Shown piece by piece: positions 1 through 55,499 of a stretch of 62,889 nt of DNA. How positions within the stretch are numbered: position 1 is the first letter of the stretch; the number at the start of each line of letters is the position of its first letter. The stretch lies in assembly GCA_013203045.1 (NCBI GenBank), contig JABMQN010000059.1, positions 1 to 62,889 of the forward strand, read 5' to 3'. This DNA comes from Chloroflexota bacterium (GTDB taxonomy: Bacteria; Chloroflexota; Dehalococcoidia; SZUA-161; SpSt-899). The position numbers and the translations under genes were made by a program. The notes beneath the pieces are model-generated. The model was not told the origin of the DNA, made no database searches, and was given only the letters and a program-made list of their open reading frames with translations.

Positions 1-56
1 CGAACCAACGACCAATCGGTTATGAGCCGACCGCTCTGCCGCTGAGCTACAGGCCC
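1..56 (-). tRNA. tRNA with CAT anticodon (elongator Met or Ile2). Only the 5' two-thirds is present; the 3' end lies beyond the window start.
   Basis: The reverse complement reads GGGCCTG-TA-GCTC-AGCGGC-AGAGC-G-GTCGG-CTCATAA-CCGAT-TGGTC-GTTGGTTCG. This gives an acceptor arm, D arm, anticodon stem-loop with CAT, variable loop and the start of the T arm. Confidence 0.7.
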
Positions 57-1462: not shown

Positions 1463-1921
1463 CTATGATTGGAGCCGGGCCAGTATTTCAGACTCTATTG
1501 ATCGCATTTGCTCGTCATCTTCGGAAGATTCATGATCATATCCCAACAAGTGAAGCACGCCATGGACAACCAGAACAACCACTTCATTCTGAAGAGAATG
1601 TCCCATTTCCTCGGCCTGCTTTGCTGCCTGCGGGCACGAGATAATCACTTCACCAAGATGCGTTATTCCGTCCGAGATTGAGGGGAATTCTGTATCTTCC
1701 TGAAAAGCGAAGGCCAGCACATCCGTGGTTTTATCAATCCCCCGATATGTCCGGTTTAGCTCGTGCAGTGTGGTATCATCAGTGATCAGTAAACTCAACT
1801 CTACCGGATCGCTGCTCCCTTCGGAAATGACCACTTCCCGCACCGCTTGACGCACCCAGGATTCCTGCACAGGTTCCTGAAACGGTTCATCAATTCGAAT
1901 ATCTATTTGCCAATTCAACAT
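1463..1921 (-). CDS. ybeY: rRNA maturation endoribonuclease YbeY
   Basis: 152 aa with the HGVLHLLGYDH zinc-binding motif typical of YbeY. Confidence 0.9.
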   Translation of the reverse strand: MLNWQIDIRIDEPFQEPVQESWVRQAVREVVISEGSSDPVELSLLITDDTTLHELNRTYRGIDKTTDVLAFAFQEDTEFPSISDGITHLGEVIISCPQAAKQAEEMGHSLQNEVVVLVVHGVLHLLGYDHESSEDDEQMRSIESEILARLQS

Positions 1922-1968
1922 CCTGCTCCAACATTGCCATCATATCAATGGCTGATGGTACGGTCAAC

Positions 1969-1995
1969 AAAAAAAGCGAGGTCCTTCAACCTCGC
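1969..1995 (-). terminator. Rho-independent terminator after nuoN
   Basis: The minus strand has GCGAGG-ttgaagga-CCTCGC followed by TTTTTTT, about 35 nt after the nuoN stop. Confidence 0.6.
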
Positions 1996-2029
1996 CTCTT
2001 CTTAAAACACATATTGCTGCGAATTTTTC

Positions 2030-3457
2030 TTAAGGCAAAAGTACCGCTGCGATATCGGCCCACTTGGTCAGTGCATAAGGGTAGATACCGAGCAACAGCA
2101 CACCAAAAATCGATATCACCAATGCAGCCCTAATTCCACTATCGGAAGGTATTCCTACCAACGACTTCGCTTCACCAATAAACATAACCTTCATCACTTT
2201 GAAATAGTAGAACGCTGCTATTACTGAGTTGACCACACCAAAGACAACTAACCATAGCATTCCTTCATCCATAGCTGCCTTAAACACCACCAGTTTACCC
2301 ATGAATCCGGCTGTCGGCGGGATACCTGTTAAAGAGATTAAACAGACTCCAAGGACAAGAGCTAACACAGGGGCTCTCTTGAACATACCTGAGTAGTCGC
2401 TGATTTCATCGCTGCCGATTTTGTTACTTATCGCTATTACGGCTATAAATGCCCCCAGGTTTGCCAGAGAGTAAACAGCCAGGTAGAACATAATTCCGCT
2501 TTGCCCTGCTGCATTTGCAGCAGCCAGACCAACCAGAATATAGCCAACCTGTGCAACACCGGAATAGGCCAGAAGCCTTTTGATATTCGATTGTTGTATG
2601 GCCAGCAGATTACCTATCGACATCGTCACCACAGCCAGGACTCCCCACAGCACGCTCCAATCATCATAAAGCCATCCTGGCTCACCAAAGGCTTCAAAGA
2701 AGATGCGAAGGATTACGGCAAATCCGGCAGCTTTACTGGCAACGGAAAGATATGCGGTGACCGGTGTTGGGGCACCCTCGTATACATCCGGCATCCACAT
2801 GTGGAACGGAACTGCTCCGATCTTGAATGCAAATCCTGAAGCGATAAGTACCACGCCCAGCAGTAATCCAGGCTCACGCGCGCCTCCATCAGCCAACGCT
2901 GCTCCGATTCCGTCCAGATGGGTTGTTCCGGTAAACCCAAAGACCAGCACCATTCCGTAAAGCAATATGGCTGAAGCTATTCCACCCAGCAGAATATACT
3001 TCAAGCCTGATTCTGTCGATTTGCGGTCTTTGAGAAAAGCGGTCAACGCGTAGAGAGACATGCTGGAAAGTTCCAGCGAAACGTAGATTGTAATCATCTC
3101 CCGGGCTGCTGCCATGAGCATCAAACCCAGAGCCGAAAGTAAAATCAACGCATAGAACTCACCGCGAAGATGTTCGAATTTATCATTCACATATCGCCAT
3201 GATGACATGATCACCATCGCTGTGATACCGAGAATGAGGACCTTAAAGAATATGGCGAACTTATCAACGGCCAGCATGTCGTTCATAGCCAGGCCACCTT
3301 CGTTCCATAGATCGATAGCCAAAACCAGCGGAACGATCAAGCCAACCGCACTGACGATCGGCAGGTAATGTTTCTTCTCAACCACCAGGTCGAGAAGAAT
3401 TACCACTAATGCCAGTACGGCCATGGTAAGTTCCGGCGAAATTAAATGCCACTCCAA
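2030..3457 (-). CDS. nuoN: NADH-quinone oxidoreductase subunit N
   Basis: 475-aa polytopic antiporter-like protein and last gene of the nuo array. It carries the typical LAYSGVAQVGY motif. Confidence 0.9.
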   Translation of the reverse strand: MEWHLISPELTMAVLALVVILLDLVVEKKHYLPIVSAVGLIVPLVLAIDLWNEGGLAMNDMLAVDKFAIFFKVLILGITAMVIMSSWRYVNDKFEHLRGEFYALILLSALGLMLMAAAREMITIYVSLELSSMSLYALTAFLKDRKSTESGLKYILLGGIASAILLYGMVLVFGFTGTTHLDGIGAALADGGAREPGLLLGVVLIASGFAFKIGAVPFHMWMPDVYEGAPTPVTAYLSVASKAAGFAVILRIFFEAFGEPGWLYDDWSVLWGVLAVVTMSIGNLLAIQQSNIKRLLAYSGVAQVGYILVGLAAANAAGQSGIMFYLAVYSLANLGAFIAVIAISNKIGSDEISDYSGMFKRAPVLALVLGVCLISLTGIPPTAGFMGKLVVFKAAMDEGMLWLVVFGVVNSVIAAFYYFKVMKVMFIGEAKSLVGIPSDSGIRAALVISIFGVLLLGIYPYALTKWADIAAVLLP

Positions 3458-3483
3458 AATTCTCTCCTAAGAACCTTTCACAA

Positions 3484-4962
3484 TTATTGTCCTAACCAGG
3501 GCGCCATAAATTCTAGACTATTATCAATCAAATCGGTGAAATAGTGTGGCCTTATTCCTATCCACATTATCGATGCCACCAAGGAGAATATAACGAATCT
3601 CTCCATTACAGTCGCATCCGGTAGATGATCAAACTGGCTCTTCGGCTCATGGTAGAAGACTCGTTGAATCATCCATAAAATGTAACCGGCTGTTAGCACA
3701 ATCCCAACAATACCGAGTATAGTGTACACATGCATCCACGGAGTCACATCGCTATTGTAACTTCCGGTAAATATCAGGAATTCAGCCGCGAATCCACTGG
3801 TCAATGGCAACCCGAGCGACGCCATACCGGCAATTGAAAATACCACACAGGCAATCGGCATCTGGCGCGCCAGCCCTCCCAAATAGGGAATTCTTCTCTC
3901 ATGAGTCTTATCATAAACCACACCCACCATGGCAAACAGAAGACCAGTCACTACGCCGTGGCTGAGCAACTGCAGAGCTGCACCGGTCACACTGACCTGT
4001 TGAAGGGCGAATATGCCAAGCAAAACATAGCCCATGTGGCTCACGGAACTATATGCAATGAGTCTCTTTAGGTCAGTCTGCCGCAACGTAGCAGCCGCAC
4101 CATAGATAACCCCTATGATACCCAACAATATGAGTAGCCATGCATACTCTTTAGCTGGATCAGAGAACATACCCACCAAGCGGATCATCCCGTATCCACC
4201 CATCTTGATGAGCACACCAGCCAGCATCACGCTACCGGCTGTTGGAGCATCGGTATGAGCATCCGGCAACCAGGTGTGGAAGGGGAACATAGGCAACTTG
4301 ACACAGAAACAGAAGAATATAAGGAAAAATATCAATGTTGAATAATCCTTAACTTCGCTACCAATTTGTGTCATATCCCAAGTTCCACCCTGGAAGTAGG
4401 CAACCAGGATACCAGCCAGCAACCCCGCACTACCAAGCAATGTGTACAGCAAGTACTTGACCGCAGAATACTCCCTTCTACCTAATGGAGGTTTGGTGCC
4501 CCATACCGAAATGAGGAAGTACATCGGGATCAGCTCGATTTCCCAGAAGATAAAGAACAGCAGGAAGTCCTGAGCTACGAACACGCCCATAATACTGAAC
4601 TCCAGAATCAGTAACCAGGCGAAATGCTCACGAACCCTATCTTTAATGTTCCACGAAACGAAGACACACAGGAAACCAAGGAATGCGGTCAACAACAGCA
4701 GTGGCGCGCTCAGGCCGTCAACACCAAGGAAATACTCAGCATTAATGGAATCGATCCATGTATACCGTTCGATGAACTGCAATCCGCCATCAGATTTCTC
4801 AAAATCGATGAACATGAGGATCGCCAGCAAGAACGTTACCCCGGTAACCAGCGCGGCAAACTGCTTCAACCCCTTATCGGTGATACGAAACACTGCTATC
4901 AGGATTGCTCCGATAACCGGCAAAAACAATATTAGCGAGAGGATATTGATATCATCGAACAA
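3484..4962 (-). CDS. nuoM: NADH-quinone oxidoreductase subunit M
   Basis: 492-aa antiporter-like subunit with the motifs HTWLPDAH and LIAYSSVSHMG. Operon position supports the call. Confidence 0.9.
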   Translation of the reverse strand: MFDDINILSLILFLPVIGAILIAVFRITDKGLKQFAALVTGVTFLLAILMFIDFEKSDGGLQFIERYTWIDSINAEYFLGVDGLSAPLLLLTAFLGFLCVFVSWNIKDRVREHFAWLLILEFSIMGVFVAQDFLLFFIFWEIELIPMYFLISVWGTKPPLGRREYSAVKYLLYTLLGSAGLLAGILVAYFQGGTWDMTQIGSEVKDYSTLIFFLIFFCFCVKLPMFPFHTWLPDAHTDAPTAGSVMLAGVLIKMGGYGMIRLVGMFSDPAKEYAWLLILLGIIGVIYGAAATLRQTDLKRLIAYSSVSHMGYVLLGIFALQQVSVTGAALQLLSHGVVTGLLFAMVGVVYDKTHERRIPYLGGLARQMPIACVVFSIAGMASLGLPLTSGFAAEFLIFTGSYNSDVTPWMHVYTILGIVGIVLTAGYILWMIQRVFYHEPKSQFDHLPDATVMERFVIFSLVASIMWIGIRPHYFTDLIDNSLEFMAPWLGQ

Positions 4963-8601: not shown

Positions 8602-9756
8602 TTAAGACTCAACTTGCGGCCCTCCCCTGAGTTTGAAGAAAGTGGCCCAGCCAGTGAGTAGCGCACCACAAATAACGATATTTATCGGCACTAGCCACCA
8701 GGTAACGGCATCCCCTTCAAACCATATCACTTCCAACGCCACGATCAGCAAGTTCACTATCGAAAGCGGCAACATATATTTCCATGCAAAACTCATAAGC
8801 TGATCAATACGAACACGAGGCCAAGTCGCTCGAATCCAAACGATCATGCCAAATACGGCAAACAGTTTGATCATGAACCAAAGGAATGGCGGTAAGAACG
8901 GACCTTTCCATCCAGCGAGGAATAACGTAGTAATTAGAGCGGATTGGATGATGGCACCACCGTATTCACCAAGATAGAACATGGCGAACTTCATCCCCGA
9001 ATACTCGATATGATATCCGGCGATGATTTCAGATTCCGCTTCCAATAAGTCAAAAGGTGTTCTCTGCAATTCCGCTAAAGCTCCGATAAAATATAAAATG
9101 AACGCCATCGGGAGTAATAATGCAAACGGTATAGTTTGAGCTTGCACGATCCCTTGAAGTGAAAGCGTTCCGGTAACCAGCACCACGGCAACCACGGCGA
9201 AAGCCATCGGCATCTCATAGCTCACCATCATGGCTACACTTCTCATGGCGCCAAGTATGGAGTATTTATTGTTCGATCCCCAACCGGCCATAAAAACAGC
9301 GATAGTCTCAATAGATCCCACGGCAATGACAAACAGAATACCGACGTTGAGATCGGGTATGAGACCAACTCCCTCATGGACGGGGATAACAGCAAACATT
9401 AGAAGTACGGGAACAAAAATGGCAATAGGTGCAATGAAGTGGACAACCTTGTCCGCCAGATTGGGGACAATATCTTCTTTCAACATCACCTTGACAGCAT
9501 CGGCAACAGGCTGAAGCAGACCAAACGGACCGCATCGGTTTGGTCCTATGCGCAGCTGCATGGGTGAGATGAATCTGCGTTCGAACCAGATAAAGCCCAT
9601 CACCACAAGTAAGACAAACCCGATAATCCCAACAGAGAACAATCCCCAGTGGGCCCAGAAATTATCGACAGCCCAACCGGAATCTAATGGATCGTCAAAC
9701 GGCTGCCATACTGATGCTGGCATCCTGGTAATTATCTCTTGTGGTGTGGTAATCAC
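8602..9756 (-). CDS. nuoH: NADH-quinone oxidoreductase subunit H
   Basis: 384-aa polytopic protein with conserved motifs RIGPNR.GP.GLLQP.AD and PFDL.EAESE. Confidence 0.9.
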   Translation of the reverse strand: MITTPQEIITRMPASVWQPFDDPLDSGWAVDNFWAHWGLFSVGIIGFVLLVVMGFIWFERRFISPMQLRIGPNRCGPFGLLQPVADAVKVMLKEDIVPNLADKVVHFIAPIAIFVPVLLMFAVIPVHEGVGLIPDLNVGILFVIAVGSIETIAVFMAGWGSNNKYSILGAMRSVAMMVSYEMPMAFAVVAVVLVTGTLSLQGIVQAQTIPFALLLPMAFILYFIGALAELQRTPFDLLEAESEIIAGYHIEYSGMKFAMFYLGEYGGAIIQSALITTLFLAGWKGPFLPPFLWFMIKLFAVFGMIVWIRATWPRVRIDQLMSFAWKYMLPLSIVNLLIVALEVIWFEGDAVTWWLVPINIVICGALLTGWATFFKLRGGPQVES

Positions 9757-10919: not shown

Positions 10920-11357
10920 CTACAGAAAATCCTGTCTTAGTGGATGCCCTTCGAACCCTTCCCACAATGCGATGCGCTTAAGGTTCGGATGCCCGATAAA
11001 ACGGATTCCCAACAAGTCAAAAATCTCGCGCTCCTGAACATCAGCGCCCTGCCATAAATGAGTAATGGAGGGAATCTCAAGATTCTCTCGGCCACTCAGG
11101 TGAGACTTAACCATCAGGGTTTGCTTATTGTTCATGGAGGTCAAATTGTAAATCACTTCGAAGTATTGAAGGTAGTCAACTGCGGTCAGGTTATTCAGGT
11201 AATTGAAGTCAAACTCGGGAGTATCTTTAAGAAAGCGCATCACTCCAGGTATAGCCCGGCTATCAATCAAGATACTTTCCTGATCACTCTCGACAACCGA
11301 CTCTGGTATTTCTGCCTGAATTTTGGCCTCAATATCAAGACCCGCTAACACTTTCAT
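10920..11357 (-). CDS. nuoC: NADH-quinone oxidoreductase subunit C
   Basis: 145 aa with a 30-kDa-subunit-like C-terminal region (EREIFDLLGI.F.GHP.L.RI); operon position supports the call. Confidence 0.85.
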   Translation of the reverse strand: MKVLAGLDIEAKIQAEIPESVVESDQESILIDSRAIPGVMRFLKDTPEFDFNYLNNLTAVDYLQYFEVIYNLTSMNNKQTLMVKSHLSGRENLEIPSITHLWQGADVQEREIFDLLGIRFIGHPNLKRIALWEGFEGHPLRQDFL

Positions 11358-11364
11358 GCTGTCT

Positions 11365-11985
11365 TTAGTCCAACCTTGGCAAATGAACGTTATCTTTCAG
11401 GTAACCCTGCTTTTGTATCTTCTCATGAAGTTCCATCAAACCGTGATACAATCCTTCCGGTCTGGGGGGGCATCCCGGCACATACACATCAACCGGCAGG
11501 ATGCGGTTGATTCCCGGAACCACACTGTAGGATTCGGAGAAAGTGCCGCCACTGCATGCACAAGCGCCCATGGCCAGAACCCACTTGGGTTCCGCCATCT
11601 GATCATACAGTCGGCGAACCGCGGGAGCCATTTTCCAGGTCAATGTACCGGCGATAATCATCATGTCCGCCTGGCGCGGTGAAGGGCGGAATATCTCCAT
11701 TCCAAATCGAGAAATGTCCCATCGATTGCCTGCAGCGGCCATCATCTCAAACGCACAGCAGGCCAGCCCGAACATCATAGGCCACAGTGACCTTTTTCGG
11801 GCCCAACCCAATACAGCATCGAACGTAGTAAGCACCACGCCTCCGTGGTCAACCCCTAATAACCATTCATCCGGATCCGGTATGGGTTGCTGTGAACGAG
11901 CGATTATATCTTCAACGAGTAGGCCCTCGTCCTTATTGGCATCACCGCTTGAATATGGCAATATCAAATGATCATAATCCGGCAT
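11365..11985 (-). CDS. nuoB: NADH-quinone oxidoreductase subunit B
   Basis: 206 aa with N2-cluster ligand motifs ([23 protein letters not shown]) and an N-terminal extension of about 50 aa. Confidence 0.95.
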
Positions 11986-11986
11986 G

Positions 11987-12394
11987 TTACTTCCACTCCA
12001 GAGCTTTCTTCTTCCACGCGTACAGGAATCCGATTAATAGAATTACTACAAAAACGATCACTGCCACCAGCGCCCATATTTGATCTCCCCTCTCCCACAC
12101 TTGCACATCGCCCTTATCGATCCCGGCAAATCTAGCTGCCCAGGGAAATATGAACACTGACATGACATCTAAGACAACAAAAAGAATTGCAAACGTATAG
12201 TAATGGAAATTGAACTGGGTCCATGCTTCCTTGAACGGCTTCATGCCGCACTCATAGGTATCCTGCTTAGCCTCACTGGGGTTTTGGGGGATAACACCGC
12301 TATACCTTAATATCAAGGGAAGACCAATGAGTAAAAGGGGAAATATTATTGCTACCGCTAAGAAAAGTCCGAGTGTACCGAGGTTCTCTAGCAA
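11987..12394 (-). CDS. nuoA: NADH-quinone oxidoreductase subunit A
   Basis: 135 aa with three TM helices. TTG start with AAGGAG 8 nt upstream. First gene of the operon. Confidence 0.85.
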
Positions 12395-17177: not shown

Positions 17178-17284
17178 GCAAAGTATAAAGACGTAATGCT
17201 GCGATGGATAGTTCCACTAAAACGAAAAGAGGGCTGACCGGATACGGTCAGCCCTCTTTTCGGTATCTCTACCAGTGTTATTAT

Positions 17285-18261: not shown

Positions 18262-19032
18262 TCACAAACTTCCGGCAGCGACCTCAGCAGCTTTTTTCCC
18301 GGAGAGAAGCATTCCGCCGAAGATTGCCCCCATTCTTGGAGAACCGTAAACCGCGTTAGCAGCCATACCAGTAACTAGCAAACCGGGATATACCTCACGG
18401 GTGTTATCGATCAGATCCTTCTCACCCACTTCGGCCAGCATTGATTTTTCGCCAATAACTTCACCGGTAGCAGTATTTAGTTTTGGTCCGAGCTTCCTGG
18501 TCACTACCCGGCATATTTCGGCGGCATGCCCGGTTGCATCAATCACTGCATTGGCCCTCACAGAGAGAGGGTCTACATGGAGGTTGGCCATGGTGACAGC
18601 GCTCCAATTTAGTACCAGCCCGATGATCCTTTCATCTTTACGAATAAGTACGTCTTCGACACTGATCAGGTTAAATATCTTTGCCCCAGCCTGTATTGCT
18701 TTTGAGCATATGGTTGAAACCGTCTCGATGGAGTCAGCGATATGATAACCAGGTTCGTACTCACTTGATCTGATGCCAAATTCATTCAGGATGGTCTTTC
18801 CCTCTTCCTGAAACACGATCCGGTTGAACATCATCCCGCCACCGGGCATTCCACCGCCAACACGAAGGCCTCTTTCGAAAATTACCGTTTTAATCCCTTT
18901 CTTGGCAAGGTAATAAGCCGCCACCATCCCGGAAGGACCAGCGCCTGCTATGGCCACATCCATTTCCATGGAATCCAGGAAGTCCTTCATAAAGCTGTCC
19001 GCTATTGCGCGGGATATTTTGATATCGTCCAT
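18262..19032 (-). CDS. thi4: thiazole synthase Thi4, archaeal/sulfide-dependent type
   Basis: 256 aa with the FAD/NAD fold [11 protein letters not shown] and GGGM..GG. It has DATGH where yeast THI4 carries the suicide Cys. Confidence 0.85.
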
Positions 19033-19093
19033 TAATTACTCTCCTTATGATCTTTGTTATCGAATATAATTATATGCCGAATCATGGCTATTC

Positions 19094-19346
19094 TCAATCG
19101 TCCTGGTTGTCAAGATTCTTTGCCAGATATACGCGTAGCGGGCATCGGTAGAAAAAAATGTTTACCAAAAGGTATTGAAAATCTGCATAGCCATGGATTA
19201 TCTTCAAAGCATTCGAGAAGGCTTTCCATACCAATGTCTTTTGTCTTGCAGAGTTTCTCAAATCCAGACTCAGCGCATACGAAATTTTTGGGACACTGCA
19301 TATCCCCAATTATCTGCTTGATCTGGTCCCTTTGAGCTTCATCCAT
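19094..19346 (-). pseudogene. small Cys-rich protein whose frame is broken at a T7 homopolymer (+1 shift needed)
   Basis: The frame from ATG 19346 gives MDEAQRDQIKQIIGDMQCPKNFVCAESGFEKLCKTKDIGMESLLECFEDNPWLCRFSIPFGKHFF. After the run of 7 T (plus-strand A 19152..19158) the other frame continues YRCPLRVYLAKNLDNQDD*. The span is 253 nt, which is 3n+1. Confidence 0.5.
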
Positions 19347-20223
19347 GACTTGTTCCTTCAACCGGATAACCGGCATCTTCCCATGCCTGCATCCCTCCTT
19401 CAATCGTTGTTACATTGTCGTATCCCGCTTCAATTAGTATTTGCACCGCCCGGGCGCTACTATTTTCATCCGGTCAGGTGCAATAGGTGATAATCTCGTC
19501 ATAATTCTCAAACTCATCGTATGGTTCTACCATATCGTCCAAGGGAATTGAAATAGCTCCGGGGATGTGGGCCTCATCATAGCTGTGCTGGTGGCGAGAA
19601 TCGATGATTATTACATTGACACCTTCATCCAAACGTGCCTTCACTGCGCGCACACTGATGCGAGGAATCTCCGGTAGATACTCACTTGGAGGTAACTCTG
19701 CATCAAGCTCAAGTTCTTCTATTGGATATCCAGCCTCTTTCCAAGCCCTGAACCCCCCTTCAATCGTTGTCACATTATCGTATCCTGCTTCAATTAGTAT
19801 TTGCGCCGCCCGGGCGCTACTATTTTCATCCGGTCAGGTGCAATAGGTGATGATTTCCTCATAGCCCTCCAGTTCAATGGATTCGGTCTTTGATACTGCT
19901 CCAATAATATGAGATTCATTGTAGTCCTCTATGGGGCGGGAATCGACGATCAGTATGTTGGCTCCAGCATCGAGTTTTGACTTCACTTCATGGATACTGA
20001 TTCGTGGCACTTCAGGAAGATAGGAGCTAGGCGGCAACTCTGTGATCGCAGGAGTTAACGATGTTTCTGTTGCGGGAATCCCTGTATTTGTACCAGGTGT
20101 TTGAGTATTAGCAGTATCGGTGATTTCTATTTCTCCGGTGCTTCCCCCATTGGAGCAGCTTGCAAATAGCAGGAAAAAGCAGACGGTTAGAATCCCAAGA
20201 GTTACAGTTTTTTTGTTTATCAC
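19339..20223 (-). CDS. tandem-rhodanese lipoprotein with two in-frame UGA (predicted selenocysteine) codons at 19834..19836 and 19474..19476
   Basis: Track ORFs 19834..20223 and 19474..19773 share one frame. Translation stays open through both TGAs to TGA 19339..19341, giving 294 codons. The sequence after each TGA completes the rhodanese fold. The N-terminus has a signal peptide and the lipobox LFASC. Confidence 0.75.
19432..19464 (-). promoter_or_regulatory. SECIS-like hairpin downstream of UGA-2
   Basis: It starts 12 nt after the UGA. Lower stem AGUA/UACU, 3' AAA bulge, upper stem GCGCC/GGUGC, and G-rich apical loop CGGGC. Confidence 0.55.
19792..19824 (-). promoter_or_regulatory. SECIS-like hairpin downstream of UGA-1
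   Basis: The geometry matches 19432..19464. The single stem difference (GGCGC versus GGUGC) turns a G.U pair into a G-C pair. Confidence 0.55.
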
Positions 20224-20275
20224 AATCTCCCTAATTTGGTGTCAGGGTATGACCGATTTCTATAGGGGACGAAGT

Positions 20276-20686
20276 TCAGAAACGAATCTCCATTGCCCTG
20301 GATGGGCAGGAGCGTACGCAAATCTCGCAAGCTATGCATTTAGTGTGATCGAAATTAACCTTCATAGTTGGACGTTCAACACTCAAAGCACCCCCGGTGC
20401 AGAGTACAACGCAGGAACCGCAATGGATGCATTTCTCCTCATCCCGGACAACATCCTTGCTTAATGGCTGAATTGCCACTCCTGTCTGCGCAAGATATTC
20501 ATTACCTTTATTATAGTTACTCTCTTCACCGCTCAGTTCCACCACCAGCACGCCTTCTTCATTAGGAGTTACGGAGGCCTTCAATATGTTGAAATCGATA
20601 TTATAATCCCTAGCTAACCGGCACAATATCGGTTGATCAACTAATTTACGAGGAAAGTGTAGAACTAATCTCTTCGAGACTGTCAT
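20276..20686 (-). CDS. NIL-domain / 2x[4Fe-4S] ferredoxin protein (MA1822-type homocysteine biosynthesis partner)
   Basis: N-terminal NIL-like domain (LVLHFP...QPIL..LA.....FNIL.A) plus CIHCGSCVVLC and CIACEICVRSCP. The likely start is ATG 20686, with GGAGGAG 8 nt upstream. The track ORF starts at 20710. Confidence 0.8.
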   Translation of the reverse strand: MTVSKRLVLHFPRKLVDQPILCRLARDYNIDFNILKASVTPNEEGVLVVELSGEESNYNKGNEYLAQTGVAIQPLSKDVVRDEEKCIHCGSCVVLCTGGALSVERPTMKVNFDHTKCIACEICVRSCPSRAMEIRF

Positions 20687-20690
20687 TGTA

Positions 20691-21896
20691 TCACTCCTCC
20701 CACCTTTCATTCAGAGGTTTGAACTGTATCCCATCCTCTAACCCCGGTAATGGAGTAACCGGATCGGTGAGCAGGAAATCGCCTTTGAGAATCCAATCTT
20801 TGAGTGTATGAGCAATTTCTACTGCCTTTGAGTAACTGGATATCGATGCCGTTGGAACCTCTTTGCCGGAAACCTCTATCTTCCCGCTCTTGAGGTCGGA
20901 ATAGCTTACTTCTCCCAGAACATCGGGTTTGCGTCCCGGGTATGCTTCAGAATAGTCCACGATTGGAGCGAATATCTCTTCATCTTTCACCGATGTGTAA
21001 CGCAGGACATCCTCGGACAGGATAGGTATAGGCACACCAACGCCCACAGCCATAGTGGTACCATAACCCCGCATACTTATTCCCCTGAGCCAAGCGGACT
21101 TCATTTGCTTCAGGTCACCAATTACAGCAAGTGTTCCCGATGGTCTGTGAGGCATGTCGTTTTCTCCTCTGGGAACGCCCGGGTTATGCTGGGTACCTTG
21201 CCAGGATACATAACCAATACCACCTCCCAGAAAGATCTTAGTGCCAATTCCAATGGTCTTGTAAAGAGGATCGTTCAATAACGGTGACAGCTGTCCTGCA
21301 CTACAGTAATTGGCGTTGCCCAGGTTTCGTTTAAGCGTGCCCATGTATGTATAGATTGTTTTGTCCGAGAGATTAACGCCCACATTGTAGTTCTGGTATG
21401 CATTTCTGATATTGAACAGCACAGCTTCATTCATCTCTTCAAGCCTGACCAAAGTCTCGACTTTCTTTCTGGGATAGCAATCGGTTCCATAAGCTGTTGC
21501 CTCTAGTTTTACATCTTTCCCTGCCACCAGTTCCTCGATCACATGCCCGCCGCCGTAGTCAAACGAGCCAGGATAAGTTTTATTCCTTGGATCATCCTCG
21601 GGCATGGCGGTTACTCCAAGGAAAACGTCTACCGCAGCAAGTCCGGTATAGAGAGGGACATCGTTCAGAGTAGCTTTTCCACCACCGATCTTAATGCGAG
21701 GTGCTGAATGACCCAGATTAAAGTATGCTCCTGAAGAACACATTGGACCAAAGGTTCCGGTGGTTACTACGTCGATTGCTTTCGCTGCTTCCTCAACACC
21801 CTTTTCTTCGACAATACCAATGATCTCTTCAGCAGTCACCACGACTGCCTGTCCGCTACGGATCTTTTCATTGATTTCCGAGATTGTTTTTGTCAC
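20691..21896 (-). CDS. COG1900/DUF39 homocysteine biosynthesis protein (MA1821-type)
   Basis: 401 aa. The N-terminal pattern T..EIN.KI..G.AVV.TAEE and TTGTFG.M.SSGA is as recalled for COG1900. It is adjacent to the NIL-ferredoxin gene. Confidence 0.8.
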   Translation of the reverse strand: MTKTISEINEKIRSGQAVVVTAEEIIGIVEEKGVEEAAKAIDVVTTGTFGPMCSSGAYFNLGHSAPRIKIGGGKATLNDVPLYTGLAAVDVFLGVTAMPEDDPRNKTYPGSFDYGGGHVIEELVAGKDVKLEATAYGTDCYPRKKVETLVRLEEMNEAVLFNIRNAYQNYNVGVNLSDKTIYTYMGTLKRNLGNANYCSAGQLSPLLNDPLYKTIGIGTKIFLGGGIGYVSWQGTQHNPGVPRGENDMPHRPSGTLAVIGDLKQMKSAWLRGISMRGYGTTMAVGVGVPIPILSEDVLRYTSVKDEEIFAPIVDYSEAYPGRKPDVLGEVSYSDLKSGKIEVSGKEVPTASISSYSKAVEIAHTLKDWILKGDFLLTDPVTPLPGLEDGIQFKPLNERWEE

Positions 21897-22026
21897 AATC
21901 TTACTCCTTATGGATTAGCTATTTTCTATTCGTTTGGCCCTTTCAGGCATAGCATGATCCATAACATTACACTATCCTTCTCTGAGACGACGTGGATACT
22001 TTCGGTAAAAATTTGGCTTAGCATCA

Positions 22027-22461
22027 CTATTTAGCAGCAATATCACGTAATTTCTTCTTCTGTCTTTCCACCAGATCCTGTAACGTTACCCCATCCAACA
22101 CTTCTTCCATTGCTTCTTTTACTTCTCCCCAAAGATCACAAGTGGCGCAGGAATCGGCACGTGGGCAAACGCTGGGATCATCCACACATTCAACAGGCGC
22201 TATTGAACCTTCGAGAAGTTCAATTACTTCCCGTACCTTGATGTCCTCTGGCCGTCGACCCAGCGCGACTCCTCCAGACGGACCACGAGTGCTTACTAGA
22301 AAACCTTCTCTTACGAGTGGAGCAATAATTCGCTCCAGGTAGTATAGAGAAATCTGTTGTCTTTCAGCGATATATTTTAATTGAACCAGACCTTCATCCT
22401 GGCTAAGAGCCACCTCCAACAATGCACGAGTACCATATCTACCTTTGGTGGATATTTTCAT
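22027..22461 (-). CDS. Rrf2-family transcriptional regulator (3-Cys, Fe-S type)
   Basis: 144 aa with the MKISTKGRYGTRALL.. wHTH and C-terminal Cys ligands (CVDDPSVCPRADSCATC). Confidence 0.85.
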   Translation of the reverse strand: MKISTKGRYGTRALLEVALSQDEGLVQLKYIAERQQISLYYLERIIAPLVREGFLVSTRGPSGGVALGRRPEDIKVREVIELLEGSIAPVECVDDPSVCPRADSCATCDLWGEVKEAMEEVLDGVTLQDLVERQKKKLRDIAAK

Positions 22462-22474
22462 ACGTTCAACCTCA

Positions 22475-22499
22475 ATTGTTGACCATCTTTATCAACAAT
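22475..22499. promoter_or_regulatory. 25-bp perfect dyad ATTGTTGA-N9-TCAACAAT, a candidate Rrf2 operator
   Basis: It lies 14 nt upstream of the Rrf2 start codon. The 8-9-8 dyad has the size typical of IscR-type sites. Confidence 0.4.
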
Positions 22500-22607
22500 A
22501 TCACAATGCAATAAAAACGTCAATTATTCGGTGTCATTCGTTCAAGATAACAACGATAGACGAGGATTTAGTCTTCTGTCATCTTGAGTATAAAACAGGT
22601 CAGTTCC

Positions 22608-23123
22608 CTAATCATTCTCTTTAATGAGCGTTTTCAGCGTTTCAATATCATGCCTCAACCGCTTTTGCCTCTGTTGAAGAAATAGAACGTATCCAAAGAT
22701 GACCACCCATACGATGGCGAAAGCTGCAAACAGATATTCGAGATTGTCATCTTCACCGGAATCAAATGGGAATACTGTTATCTCGACAGATTTGATATTT
22801 TCGCCGGATTCGAAAGTGATTGGCGAGCTGTGAAACTCCGAATCTCCATAATGAACCGAAACGAAATACGTGTAATCAGGGTCAGTCGGGAGGTTCGAAA
22901 AACTAAATGTGCCATCGTCATTGGTTCTGGTCCCATAAGAAGTTTCGATCTTCGCCCCGATAAACCAAGTTATTGTGGCTTCCAGATCAGATACATCTCC
23001 TTCCCCATTCGGTTCGATCTTTACCTGTCCCTCTATCTGTCCTTCCGGAGATCCTTGAGCGGCTACGGCACTGGGGATACATAAAATCAGTATGACTACA
23101 AAAACAACAATTGATCTTTTCAT
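22608..23123 (-). CDS. secreted beta-sandwich (carboxypeptidase-regulatory-like) domain fused to a CcmD-like C-terminal TM helix
   Basis: 171 aa with a signal peptide and DGTFSFSNLP..DY. The C-terminal LFAAFAIVWVVIFGYVLFLQQRQKRL resembles alternative CcmD proteins. It is the last gene of the ccm array. Confidence 0.45.
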   Translation of the reverse strand: MKRSIVVFVVILILCIPSAVAAQGSPEGQIEGQVKIEPNGEGDVSDLEATITWFIGAKIETSYGTRTNDDGTFSFSNLPTDPDYTYFVSVHYGDSEFHSSPITFESGENIKSVEITVFPFDSGEDDNLEYLFAAFAIVWVVIFGYVLFLQQRQKRLRHDIETLKTLIKEND

Positions 23124-30501: not shown

Positions 30502-31089
30502 TTACAGTTTTGCGCCGCACTCAGGGCATTCTGATGCATCCTGCGTCAGTATTTTCTTGCAGTTCGGGCAGGTGCGAAGCGTTATCTGGCATGGTCTGCA
30601 ATAGGGTGCCTCACCTTCTTCCAGTTTATCCCCACAGTTCGGACATGCGCATTCAGCATGCTCGCCAGCATCGACATGTGCCTCCCCCCATTCATGCACG
30701 TGCGCCGGTGCTTCTCCTCTTTGCCTGCCTTCGTAGTCAGCAATTGCCTTGCCCAATGCATCTGCGCCAAGATTGGAGCAATGGAATTTCTGTTTGGGTA
30801 AACCACCAAGCTCATCAGCTACCATTTTTGGAGTGATTTTTTTGGCTTCTTCTATGGTCTGTCCTTTAGCCATTTCGCTTACCATACTGGAGACGGCAAT
30901 GGCAGCTCCGCATCCGAACGTCTTGAATTTGACATCACTTAAACGGCCGTCGTCCACCTTGATATAAAACGTCATCATGTCTCCGCATACGGGATTGCCC
31001 TCTTCACCGATGCCATCTGCATCTTCAATCTCTCCCACATTGCGGGGATTCATGAAATATTCCATCACTTTTTCACTATAGGCGGGCAT
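30502..31089 (-). CDS. iscU: IscU/NifU-N-type Fe-S scaffold with a C-terminal double zinc-ribbon extension
   Basis: NPVCGD, FGCGAAIA and CSNLG scaffold cysteines. A tail of about 65 aa follows, with CPNCG...CRPC...CPNC...CPECG. Confidence 0.85.
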   Translation of the reverse strand: MPAYSEKVMEYFMNPRNVGEIEDADGIGEEGNPVCGDMMTFYIKVDDGRLSDVKFKTFGCGAAIAVSSMVSEMAKGQTIEEAKKITPKMVADELGGLPKQKFHCSNLGADALGKAIADYEGRQRGEAPAHVHEWGEAHVDAGEHAECACPNCGDKLEEGEAPYCRPCQITLRTCPNCKKILTQDASECPECGAKL

Positions 31090-31090
31090 A

Positions 31091-32278
31091 CTACTTTCCT
31101 CCTTTTTGGCTCTTCAGGTATTTATCATAAAGCGGCGATATTTGCCGTAACCTCTCCACTATGGGAGGGAATGATTCAATCACATAATTAATATCCTCAT
31201 CAGTATTCTCAGCTCCAATGGTGAATAGAAGAGATCCCTGAGCTATTTCGGGAGGATATCCCATGGCGTTGAGAACATGTGATGATTTTAACATTTTTGA
31301 GGTGCAAGCTGAACCACTGGCCGCAGCGATCCCCTGATTTTCCAGAAAGGCCAGCATGGCTTCACCTTCAATGAAATTGACACAAAGACTGACGTTCCCT
31401 GGAAGTCGTTGTGTTGGATGACCTGTCAAATTGATGTGTTTGATTTTTTCCTGCAGTCCTTCACGTAACCTGTCACGTAGCTTGGTAATTTGTTCATTTC
31501 GTGATTGCATATCCTGTTGCGCCAGTTCGGCCGCTTTGCCCAGTCCGACTACTCCCGGAACGTTGTGGGTTCCCGATCTCTTGTCTGATTCTTGAACTCC
31601 ACCTTCCAGCATCGGTATAATCTGAATTCCTCTTCGGAGCCAAAGGGCAGCAGCACCGGTAGGACCGTAGAACTCGTTGGCCGCCAAGCTGAGACAATCT
31701 ATACCAAGTTCCTGTACATCAACCGGGATCACTCCGGTAGTGGCAATAGCATCCGTATGAAATACCGCTCCTGATTCCTTAACAACTTCAGCGATTTCTT
31801 TCAGCGGCTGTATTGTGCCGACTTCCATATTCGCGTGCATCACTGAAACCAGAGTGGTATCTTGTCTGATATTCTTTTTCACCTGGTCTGGATCAACCAG
31901 GCCATATTCATCGACCGGGAGATAGGTGACCTCAAATCCGAATTTCTCCAGGGTACGGGCAGGGTGTAATACCGAGAAATGCTCGATGGAAGATATGATG
32001 ACATGTCTACCCCTTCCCCGACGTGCTACGGCCAACCCTTTGATAGCCATGTTATTGGACTCAGTTCCGCATGAGGTGAAGATGATTTCGTTTTCCGGAG
32101 CATTGATGAGACTACCAACTTGTGAACGGGCCTCCTCTATTGCATCACTGGCTCGATTACCCCTGTCACCGAAGGATACCGGATTGCCAAACAACTCTCT
32201 GCAATATGGGGACATCGCTTCGTGGACTCTTATATCAATCGGTGTTGCTGATCCATTGTCAAGGTATACTTCTCTCAT
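31091..32278 (-). CDS. cysteine desulfurase (NifS/IscS class)
   Basis: 395-aa PLP fold with SSIEH, a HTDA...G region and an active-site SGSACTS loop. Confidence 0.9.
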   Translation of the reverse strand: MREVYLDNGSATPIDIRVHEAMSPYCRELFGNPVSFGDRGNRASDAIEEARSQVGSLINAPENEIIFTSCGTESNNMAIKGLAVARRGRGRHVIISSIEHFSVLHPARTLEKFGFEVTYLPVDEYGLVDPDQVKKNIRQDTTLVSVMHANMEVGTIQPLKEIAEVVKESGAVFHTDAIATTGVIPVDVQELGIDCLSLAANEFYGPTGAAALWLRRGIQIIPMLEGGVQESDKRSGTHNVPGVVGLGKAAELAQQDMQSRNEQITKLRDRLREGLQEKIKHINLTGHPTQRLPGNVSLCVNFIEGEAMLAFLENQGIAAASGSACTSKMLKSSHVLNAMGYPPEIAQGSLLFTIGAENTDEDINYVIESFPPIVERLRQISPLYDKYLKSQKGGK

Positions 32279-53836: not shown

Positions 53837-54571
53837 TCAGTTGTCCGGATCATCCTCTGATTTGCCAAGCACGATCTCTAGCAATCTGGCTTCTTCAGCA
53901 GAACATGCAGTTTCTGAGGTTTGTTCCAATTTGCTTATTCTTTCAACCAGTTTAGCTTGTTCAGTAATAATCCGTCGGATCGCATCGATTATCGGATCAG
54001 GCAACTTGCCATGTTCCAAAGCCTCGATAGGGCCTTCTTTTTGTCCCACAATTCTACCCGGAACACCAACCACTGTTTTACCTGGGGGAACCGACTTCAC
54101 CACCACGGAGTTGGCACCAATCCTGCCACCTTCACCGATAGTGATGGGCCCCAGCAAAATCGCCGCCGAACCGATTACCACATTATTGCCAAGCGTGGGG
54201 TGACGTTTCTTCTTTTCAAAAGTCGTCCCACCCAGGACGACCCCCTGATAGAGCAGACAATCATCGCCGATTTCCGATGTCTCTCCTATCACTACGCCCA
54301 TTCCATGATCGATAAAGAATCGTCGTCCTATTTTGGCGCCGGGATGAATTTCGACGCCTGTGAAGAATCGGCTGTTCTGCGAGATGATTCGCGCCAACAG
54401 GCGCAGCTGATGCCGCCAGAAAAAATGAGCAAATCGATGTGACCAGAGGGCTTGAAGTCCGGGATAGCAGCAAATCACCTCGACCCAGTTACGCGCTGCA
54501 GGATCTTTGTTAAAAACAGTTCGAATATCTTCTCTTAGCGTGCCGAACATATTATGCGCCCTACTCCTCAA
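53837..54571 (-). CDS. cysE: serine O-acetyltransferase
   Basis: Hexapeptide-repeat protein with DPAA.....V..YPG..A...HR.AH and GIEIHPGA-type motifs. The likely start is ATG 54550 (MFGTLRED). Confidence 0.9.
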
Positions 54572-55499
54572 ACAGCCAGGTGCTCAAATATCTCTCGCCA
54601 GTATCCGGTAAAATCGCTACGACGAGCTTCCCTTCATTTTCTGGTCTCTTGGCAATCTCCAGAGCTGCCCATACTGCTGCACCAGATGATATTCCGGCTA
54701 GAATACCCTCCTCTTTAGCCAACCGTCTGGTTATTGTGCCTGCATCCTCACTACGCACTTTGATGATCTCATCGAGAAGGTCCATCTTTAACACATCAGG
54801 CACAAAACCCGCTCCGATGCCCTGTATCTTGTGAGGTCCCGGGTTCCCTCCTGAAAGAACAGGTGAATCAAGGGGTTCCACTGCAATGGCTTTGAAATCA
54901 GGTTTTCTTGCTTTCAGTACCTCAGCAATGCCGGTGATCGTTCCTCCGGTACCCACTCCTGCTATAACATAATCAACCTTGCCATCGGTATCCCGCCATA
55001 TTTCTTCTGCAGTGGTATCCCGATGTATTTTGGGATTCGCAGGATTCTTGAATTGTTGTGGCATGAAGGCGTTCGGAGTATTGGCAACCAGTTCTTCCGC
55101 TTTTCGGATAGCGCCTGGGATTCCCTCTGCTCCTGGTGTCAGCACAAGTTCAGCACCCAGAGCGGTGAGTAATTGTCTTCGCTCCACAGACATGGTATCA
55201 GGCATAGTAATAATGAGCCGATAACCCTTTGCCGCACACACGAAAGCAAGCCCAACACCTGTGTTTCCGCTGGTAGACTCGATGATCACTGTTTCATTGC
55301 CGATTAGTCCTCTTTCTTCGGCATCCCTGATCATCGAAACACCAATGCGATCCTTTACATTCCCAACGGGATTGAACGATTCGAGCTTCGCTACCACGTC
55401 CGCATTCACCCCCTGCGCTACACGCCTAAGACGAACCAAAGGAGTGTTGCCGATCAACTCAGTGATATCGTCAGCTATATTTGACATTTGCTGCTCCAA
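54561..55499 (-). CDS. cysK: cysteine synthase A (O-acetylserine sulfhydrylase)
   Basis: 312 aa with [19 protein letters not shown] and GVGTGGT motifs. Confidence 0.95.

Follow-up and report, generated by a model that had tools for sequence, protein, structure and literature searches.

A sulfide-assimilation operon of Dehalococcoidia with a clade-specific insertion of a predicted selenocysteine rhodanese

Results

Organization of the locus

The subject of this analysis is a gene cluster in a Chloroflexota bacterium of the Dehalococcoidia (assembly GCA_013203045.1, contig JABMQN010000059.1, positions 1 to 62,889). The entire 62,889-nt stretch (∼63 kb) is referred to below as the window, and related loci, designated by L numbers, were compared as fetched stretches of 12–21 kb. 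The cluster comprises six successive open reading frames (ORFs) on the minus strand, running from position 22461 down to 18262. They encode an Rrf2-family regulator, a COG1900/DUF39 protein of homocysteine biosynthesis (HcyBio), a NIL-domain ferredoxin, a rhodanese with in-frame TGA codons, a small cysteine-rich protein and a Thi4 thiazole synthase (Table 1). All six genes were present as proposed in a first-pass annotation made from the sequence, and the assignments to Rrf2, COG1900, NIL-ferredoxin, rhodanese and Thi4 were confirmed by hidden Markov model (HMM) searches.

Table 1. Genes and predicted signals of the cluster, in the direction of transcription
Feature	Position	Strand	Basis or remark
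Promoter-like site 5' to the Rrf2 gene, TTGACG-17-TATTGT with TG	22495..22523	minus	Consensus scan, pattern match only
Perfect 8+8 dyad ATTGTTGA-N9-TCAACAAT, 25 bp, likely Rrf2 operator	22475..22499		Sequence reading
Rrf2-family regulator, 144 aa	22027..22461	minus	PF02082, E 9e-39
HcyBio/COG1900a, 401 aa	20691..21896	minus	PF01837, E 5e-153
NIL domain plus two [4Fe-4S] ferredoxin motifs, MA1822-like	20276..20710	minus	PF09383 and Fer4 families
Tandem two-domain selenocysteine (Sec) rhodanese, lipoprotein-like, 294 codons	19339..20223	minus	NF041203
Rhodanese domain 1, UGA (Sec) codon	19834..19836	minus	
Rhodanese domain 1, hairpin GCGCC-CGGGC-GGCGC resembling a selenocysteine insertion sequence (SECIS)	19802..19818	minus	18–34 nt past the UGA
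Rhodanese domain 2, UGA (Sec) codon	19474..19476	minus	
Rhodanese domain 2, SECIS-like hairpin	19442..19458	minus	One G-C pair replaced by G-U
Small Cys-rich gene, frameshifted	19094..19346	minus	ORF as it stands, 19346–19110
Promoter-like site TTGAGA-17-TATAAT, just upstream of Thi4	19069..19097	minus	11/12 matches
Thi4 thiazole synthase, non-Cys type	18262..19032	minus	PF01946, TIGR00292
First strong terminator-like hairpin 3' of the cluster	17223..17262	minus	18-bp stem followed by a T run

The common orientation of the genes, pointed out in the first-pass annotation, is uninformative, since nearly all genes between 150 and 40268 lie on the minus strand. A scan for minus-strand terminator-like sites between 22461 and 17285 found none; the first strong hairpin beyond the cluster follows an enoyl-CoA hydratase gene, and a transcript would plausibly extend no further than this. 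The gap between the NIL-ferredoxin and rhodanese genes is only 52 nt, which, together with the lack of a terminator-like site before 17262, indicates that the rhodanese gene is probably co-transcribed with the genes upstream. The ATG of the small gene and the rhodanese stop codon overlap by 8 nt. The NIL-ferredoxin may start at 20710 or, according to the Joint Genome Institute (JGI) gene call, at 20686 (136 aa). No match to a thiamin pyrophosphate or S-adenosylmethionine riboswitch or to a SECIS model was found in the region with Rfam, at either the gathering or the E-value threshold.

The rhodanese is a predicted selenoprotein with two Sec codons

The rhodanese scored 149.6 bits against NF041203 ('rhodanese-related (seleno)protein', cut-off 115 bits), a family catalogued in a 2026 review as a 'form 3, CxU' selenoprotein (PMC13188914). 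The first-pass annotation, which had identified a Sec-containing rhodanese, was right about the nature of the protein but described a single Sec rhodanese; the gene was found to comprise two rhodanese domains, each reading YCT-TGA-PDENSSARA, with the TGA at the position of the catalytic Cys. A TGA is retained in the relatives L082, L175, L178, L083-087, L089, L090, L094, L112, L113, L147 and L157: L082 and L175 keep both codons and the single-domain protein of L178 keeps one. The codon of domain 1 is unchanged in related populations, while L088 and L095 carry Cys at the Sec position (YC[ST]CPN). Domain 2 is a tandem duplication with a period of 360 nt, present in the window, L082 and L175, and absent from a sister marine population (L178-180).

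The hairpin located 18–34 nt downstream of the UGA contains six pairs, four of which show compensatory changes in a set of 11 sequences. Folding of the individual post-UGA regions was no better than that of shuffled sequences (z = −0.8 and −1.0), and the support for the hairpin comes from the comparative alignment only. TGA also serves as an ordinary stop in the window: among 49 stop-to-stop frames with 200 or more codons, 12 terminate in TGA; an alternative genetic code was rejected on this ground. No further convincing in-frame TGA candidates were found in the window. Dehalococcoidia are rich in selenoproteins (PMC13326102). Taken as a whole, the family score, the conservation of the TGA and the covarying hairpin indicate that the rhodanese is a real selenoprotein with two Sec codons. 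Its HMM score, the CxU motif, the placement of Sec at the catalytic Cys and the existence of Cys homologues connect it with form 3 of the catalogue. However, form 3 is listed with one Sec; the protein described here contains two, one in each of its tandem domains, and is encoded in a sulfur-assimilation operon.

The N-terminus of the rhodanese is basic and continues into a hydrophobic segment that ends in Cys and is followed by a Thr/Pro-rich linker, a pattern that recurs across the family. Because of this lipoprotein-like predicted export or anchor signal, the rhodanese probably acts extracytoplasmically, away from its proposed cytoplasmic clients. No signal or anchor was recognized in the sequences of the other five cluster products, and no transporter gene is present within the cluster. 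Exported single-fold rhodaneses that handle sulfane sulfur outside the cytoplasm include Sud, the polysulfide-sulfur transferase of Wolinella, and PspE of Escherichia coli. Both use Cys in place of Sec, and neither is known to be linked to a biosynthetic operon; the likeness to PspE consists of weak NCBIfam matches of the rhodanese only.

Two relatives of the rhodanese were found in other arrangements. In L112 (9552-10649), a TlpA/thioredoxin-like ORF comes after genes for an Rrf2 protein, a heavy-metal P-type ATPase and a Sec-rhodanese lipoprotein, and it ends directly after ...LLNFWTTW. Since this stop falls where a CxxC-type motif would begin, the ORF may encode a second selenoprotein. L094 (4559-5485) encodes a membrane protein of the DedA family that ends in a rhodanese domain, in which a TGA lies in frame (YCT*PNEASSARVA); its gene adjoins those of a thioredoxin and a second rhodanese.

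The core genes form a neighborhood that recurs in Dehalococcoidia

The HcyBio protein matched PF01837 with 509 bits (gathering score 26.2) and contains Cys53 within the motif GPMCSSG; this residue was judged, by position only, to be equivalent to Cys54 of Methanosarcina MA1821, which is essential (PMC12068725). The gene directly downstream encodes a NIL-domain protein with two Fer4 stretches. By homology, the two proteins would constitute an L-aspartate semialdehyde sulfurtransferase, with HcyBio as the catalytic subunit. An HcyBio protein with an N-terminal Cys and an adjacent NIL-ferredoxin are shared with the MA1821/MA1822/MA1715 system of Methanosarcina acetivorans and with its homologues in Desulfovibrio vulgaris. 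MA1821 differs in having a CBS domain (PMC12068725), PF01837 being the sole Pfam match of the HcyBio protein studied here. The locus also departs from the Methanosarcina system in that Rrf2 heads the operon, a Sec-rhodanese gene follows that of the NIL-ferredoxin, and COG2122 gave no tblastn match in the window. The association of DUF39 with NIL/ferredoxin proteins and COG2122 is an established one (PMC5764234).

A scan limited to one genome per species yielded 80 HcyBio loci with 70–78% identity to that of the window, mostly from Dehalococcoidia, with some labelled Omnitrophota or other phyla. Neighbors within 3 kb of HcyBio were counted in the 76 loci in which the HcyBio ORF was clustered. 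NIL-ferredoxin was found in 44 of these 76, followed by COG2122 (PRK04334; 37), CysK (33), Rrf2 (24), IscS (18), Thi4 (13), an AIR-synthase-related protein (11), CysE (10), ThiF (9), IscU (7), LarE (7) and Nfu (6). The most common order was Rrf2-CysK-(CysE)-(Thi4)-HcyBio-NIL-ferredoxin-COG2122. On the basis of these counts and of the conservation of the Rrf2 operator in relatives, the core can be regarded as a recurrent, regulator-headed sulfur-assimilation neighborhood. It agrees with what has been published on the DUF39/NIL-ferredoxin/COG2122 pathway (PMC5764234, PMC12068725). The core operon is ordinary for Dehalococcoidia.

In the window, genes of this neighborhood are in part dispersed: CysE-CysK (53837-55499) and an IscS-IscU-like pair (30502-32278), both on the minus strand, lie 10–33 kb away from the cluster. 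The PurM/AIR-synthase-like protein that recurs near HcyBio, for example in L050 (5808-6872), scored below the cut-offs for HypE, ThiL and SelD.

The rhodanese gene is a clade-limited insertion

None of the 80 loci at 70–78% HcyBio identity contained a homologue of the rhodanese or the small gene; L071 was the only one with any rhodanese-domain ORF. The arrangement Rrf2...HcyBio-NIL-ferredoxin-Sec-rhodanese was found in four lineages, namely the window, L178-180 (97% HcyBio identity to the window), L175-177 (92%) and L082 (86%). Thus, with respect to the conservation of the neighborhood, which the first-pass annotation had proposed to examine, the gene order recurs in three further lineages, but the linkage of the core with the rhodanese and the small gene does not extend to any of the 80 representatives.

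The module is followed by Thi4 in the window, L178-180 and L175-177, and in L082 by an AIR-synthase-related gene (11169-12221) located after the small gene. COG2122 was absent from the window and from the fetched loci of L082, L175 and L178. Among the 40 outgroup loci with an adjacent NIL-ferredoxin and enough downstream sequence, 29 have COG2122 after the NIL-ferredoxin gene. In the clade, the rhodanese and the small gene occupy this usual position of COG2122.

Several neighboring genes differ between the lineages. L175 carries genes for a MacB/FtsX permease, an ATP-binding cassette (ABC) ATPase and an FtrD-like protein (1761-4186) between Rrf2 and HcyBio, and in L178 a gene for an HMA-domain protein and a similar ABC pair follow Thi4. 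A few kb downstream of the cluster, L082 (13890-16491), L175 (9705-12387) and L178 (11707-12390) contain genes that are not found at that place in the window. In L082 and L175 these comprise two DsrC/TusE-like genes and a fusion gene whose product joins a DsrK/HdrD-like protein to a DsrC-like domain. A NarI/DsrM-like gene is additionally present in L175, and the fetched part of L178 contains only the DsrK/HdrD-DsrC-like fusion. A 171-aa protein is encoded on the minus strand between ccmC and Rrf2 (22608-23123), and in the same place in L175 and L178. Its N-terminus is signal-like, a membrane segment lies at its C-terminus, and it contains a beta-sandwich that weakly resembles CarboxypepD_reg. 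At the edge of the window, a partial tRNA gene is cut off (1-56, minus strand; Rfam RF00005, 40.7 bits).

The small Cys-rich gene is decaying in two lineages

The product of the small gene belongs to a family with about 400 cluster representatives (full HMMER scan), ∼80 aa in length and with seven conserved Cys residues, for which the consensus is CPKxFxC..SGFxxLCKAxDxG..LxC..C.F..FG..CxCPLRxYxAKxL. No Pfam or NCBIfam match to the small protein was obtained even at E-values up to 10, and a word-indexed search returned only the protein itself. The AlphaFold2 model of a family homologue (mean confidence score, pLDDT, 81) had no fold match in the PDB at E-values up to 0.001.

The small 7-Cys protein of the first-pass annotation thus represents a real family, but its gene is frameshifted in the window. 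The reading frame departs from that of the family at a T7 run (19152-19158), and the family C-terminus, RCPLRVYLAKNLDNQDD, is encoded in another frame. Deletion of one T restores ...GKHFFYRCPLRVYLAKNLDNQDD, which corresponds to the C-terminus of the family and of the intact orthologues in L082 and L175. An independent JGI assembly and two Logan assemblies show this frameshift as well. In L178-180 an internal deletion has left only a 3' remnant. In two of the four lineages, therefore, the small gene is either dispensable or in decay. In the window, transcriptional or translational slippage on the T7 homopolymer could bring the sequence back into frame; alternatively, the gene may be no more than a pseudogene.

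Members of the small-protein family were found next to MetY-MetX-MetW, a CysK-like gene, a NiFeSe hydrogenase, RpoD together with a binding protein and an anion symporter, and unrelated genes. Neither a constant partner nor a rhodanese was seen beside them in seven context look-ups.

The Rrf2 regulator and its predicted operator

The first-pass annotation placed an Fe-S-type Rrf2 regulator with a 25-bp dyad in its own leader at the head of the array, and both elements were verified. The protein carries Cys92, Cys99, Cys105 and Cys108, a spacing that mirrors the IscR ligands C92/C98/C104/H107. Its scores are below the equivalog cut-offs of both IscR and CymR (121.2 vs 195 and 117.6 vs 207.6 bits for the two models), and it was therefore classified at the family level only; the nearest solved structures are an IscR-like Rrf2 protein (4cic) and CymR.

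The dyad overlaps the −10 element and the transcription start region of the promoter-like site upstream of Rrf2 and is the sole perfect copy in the window. Its core, TGTTGA-N9-TCAACA, or a near variant is found in the orthologous Rrf2 leaders of many relatives. Two additional candidate operators, at 9745 and 35182 (two mismatches each), were rejected as being at chance level (3 found vs 3.2 expected in the window). Judging from these features, the Rrf2 protein probably autoregulates the operon in response to sulfur or Fe-S status by binding the predicted operator. The system resembles IscR and CymR in the Rrf2 fold, the Cys spacing and the palindromic operator at its own promoter, and in relatives Rrf2 heads cysK, cysE and iscSU genes. 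It differs in the fourth ligand, Cys instead of His, and in the sequence of the operator. A perfect copy of the operator core also lies between Thi4 and CysE in L022 (1775-1795), which suggests that in some relatives the regulator may act within the cluster.

Thi4 is predicted to be sulfide-dependent

Thi4 scored 332.5 bits against TIGR00292 ('sulfide-dependent ADP-thiazole synthase', cut-off 148.3 bits) and 283 bits against PF01946. When the protein is aligned with solved Thi4 structures, its His152 (NLHVDP) falls opposite the His of GLHIDP in the methanogen enzymes (4y4n, 4y4m) and opposite the Cys of SCMDP in plant Thi4 (1rp0). Since His152 occupies the sulfur-donor position, the enzyme is assigned to the non-Cys, sulfide-dependent type, and its prediction as a non-suicide Thi4 stands. 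The His-type assignment of the first-pass annotation is thereby upheld, but the DATGH motif on which it was based does not discriminate between the types.

A 2026 survey of Cys-type Thi4 reported clustering of Thi4 with HcyBio, CysK, CysE, NifS/NifU and the rhodanese-family protein SseA (PMC13325395). The locus resembles these clusters in joining Thi4 to HcyBio, to which CysK, CysE, NifS/IscS, NifU/IscU and ThiF are added in relatives. It departs from them in that the surveyed Thi4 is of the Cys (suicide) type, while the one encoded here is of the His type and its sulfurtransferase partner is a predicted exported selenoprotein and not SseA or ThiI.

Discussion

A proposed role for the rhodanese

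Our preferred explanation, to which we assign a probability of roughly 0.6, is that the locus is an Rrf2-controlled sulfide-assimilation operon of an uncultured Dehalococcoidia bacterium, with a clade-specific insertion of a Sec-rhodanese, which is co-expressed with the core genes and mobilizes sulfane sulfur outside the cell. The Rrf2 protein would bind TGTTGA-N9-TCAACA over its own promoter and tie downstream expression to sulfur or Fe-S status. HcyBio and the NIL-ferredoxin would, by homology, form homocysteine from aspartate semialdehyde, sulfide and ferredoxin electrons, and the His-type Thi4 would make the thiamin thiazole from NAD, glycine and sulfide. A two-gene module, composed of a presumably membrane-tethered, extracytoplasmic Sec-rhodanese and a small cytoplasmic 7-Cys protein, has been inserted after the NIL-ferredoxin gene in one narrow clade. 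The rhodanese has been retained in 4/4 lineages; loss of the small gene is under way in two, the window included. In the weakest step of the model, the rhodanese would convert extracellular thiosulfate, polysulfide or persulfides to sulfide. The sulfide could then diffuse into the cell and feed the cytoplasmic enzymes, with no direct hand-off of persulfide by the rhodanese. A coupling of this kind, in which sulfane sulfur is mobilized outside the cell and yields sulfide that can diffuse, would be the simplest one.

Several observations weigh against this explanation. The link between the rhodanese and the pathway is suggested by gene position only, and its restriction to close lineages could reflect shared ancestry and not selection. 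Other members of the Sec-rhodanese family adjoin unrelated genes, their contexts including sigma/anti-sigma genes, a vWA lipoprotein, a metal ATPase, thioredoxin-like genes and a DedA fusion. Characterized thiosulfate sulfurtransferases are known for basic active-site loops; the loop of the rhodanese, U-PDENSS, is acidic, so classical rhodanese chemistry is not assured. The hexamers of the promoter-like site upstream of Thi4 are identical and identically placed in L175, and Thi4 may therefore also be transcribed alone. With regard to independent expression of the genes, which the first-pass annotation had named as an objection to a common unit, a conserved promoter-like site precedes Thi4, and no minus-strand terminator-like site was found inside the cluster. 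Finally, COG2122 could be encoded elsewhere in the genome, of which 63 kb were surveyed.

Alternative explanations

It is conceivable, if on balance unlikely, that the rhodanese is an extracytoplasmic redox or detoxification selenoprotein that has no functional tie to the pathway and has been inherited together with the operon. In favor of such a passenger, the gene is missing from the 80 loci, and family members elsewhere turn up beside varied genes or fused to DedA; the CxU arrangement also resembles redox motifs. However, the insertion site, the short spacing and the lack of a predicted terminator have persisted down to 86% HcyBio identity, and the rhodanese was kept while its flanks changed (Thi4 vs the AIR-synthase-related gene, and the ABC insertion in L175).

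The position of the module raises the question of whether the rhodanese and the small protein replace COG2122, the MA1715 homologue, in making sulfide assimilation by L-aspartate semialdehyde sulfurtransferase efficient. We consider this doubtful. The module is found at exactly the spot where COG2122 follows the NIL-ferredoxin in 29/40 loci, and COG2122 is missing from the window and the three fetched loci of the clade. Nevertheless, COG2122 may lie elsewhere in the genomes of the clade, the two proteins would work in different compartments, and the small gene is dispensable in two lineages. The same degree of doubt applies to the fuller proposal that a double-Sec surface rhodanese, at first paired with the small 7-Cys protein, took over the sulfur-trafficking role of COG2122 and feeds homocysteine and thiazole synthesis under the control of an Fe-S Rrf2 protein.

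The first-pass annotation favored a capture-and-relay module, in which the Sec-rhodanese and the Cys-rich protein would pass persulfide (or selenide) straight to HcyBio and Thi4. The evidence gathered here lends this proposal little support, and we regard it as quite improbable. The rhodanese does lie between the NIL-ferredoxin and Thi4, or the following gene, in four lineages, and the start of the small gene overlaps the rhodanese stop. Methanosarcina HcyBio is persulfidated in vivo (PMC5764234, citing Rauch and colleagues), and Thi4 genes are often clustered with sulfur-relay genes (PMC13325395). Against a direct relay stand the export or anchor signal of the rhodanese, the lack of any such signal on its clients and the lack of a transporter in the cluster, since the predicted location of the rhodanese argues against a direct hand-off of persulfide to HcyBio and Thi4. 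Moreover, the supposed carrier is frameshifted in the window and deleted in L178 with the other genes kept, the contexts of its family are varied, and the characterized His-type Thi4 uses free sulfide (PMC8454699).

That the in-frame TGAs do not encode Sec, the rhodanese gene being a pseudogene or its stops being read otherwise, is highly improbable. In favor of this reading, the 63-kb window showed neither Sec machinery nor tRNA-Sec (ARAGORN found no complete tRNA), and the adjoining small gene is itself broken. Against it, the TGA falls precisely on the active-site position in both domains and in 12 further loci, some orthologues have Cys instead, each TGA is followed by a covarying hairpin, and the frame stays open on both sides; in addition, TGA ends 12/49 long frames, and Dehalococcoidia are selenoprotein-rich (PMC13326102).

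Significance of the locus

The locus is an operon of a known kind with a clade-specific selenoprotein insertion. The first-pass annotation considered the gene combination undescribed, but the DUF39/NIL/COG2122 association (PMC5764234) and the clustering of Thi4 with HcyBio and SseA (PMC13325395) are on record. A literature search found no paper joining 'aspartate semialdehyde sulfurtransferase' and 'rhodanese'. Should the rhodanese turn out to have no connection with the pathway, what is left is a sulfur-assimilation operon of the ordinary type.

The data define a conserved Rrf2 operator for the sulfur-assimilation genes of Dehalococcoidia, a two-Sec tandem form of a catalogued selenoprotein family, and an unannotated family of ∼80-aa 7-Cys proteins with about 400 cluster representatives. 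The locus bears on how sulfide is delivered to the DUF39/NIL-ferredoxin enzyme and to catalytic Thi4 in strict anaerobes and on the role of COG2122, and a clade that lacks COG2122 at this locus but carries a Sec-rhodanese provides a concrete lead.

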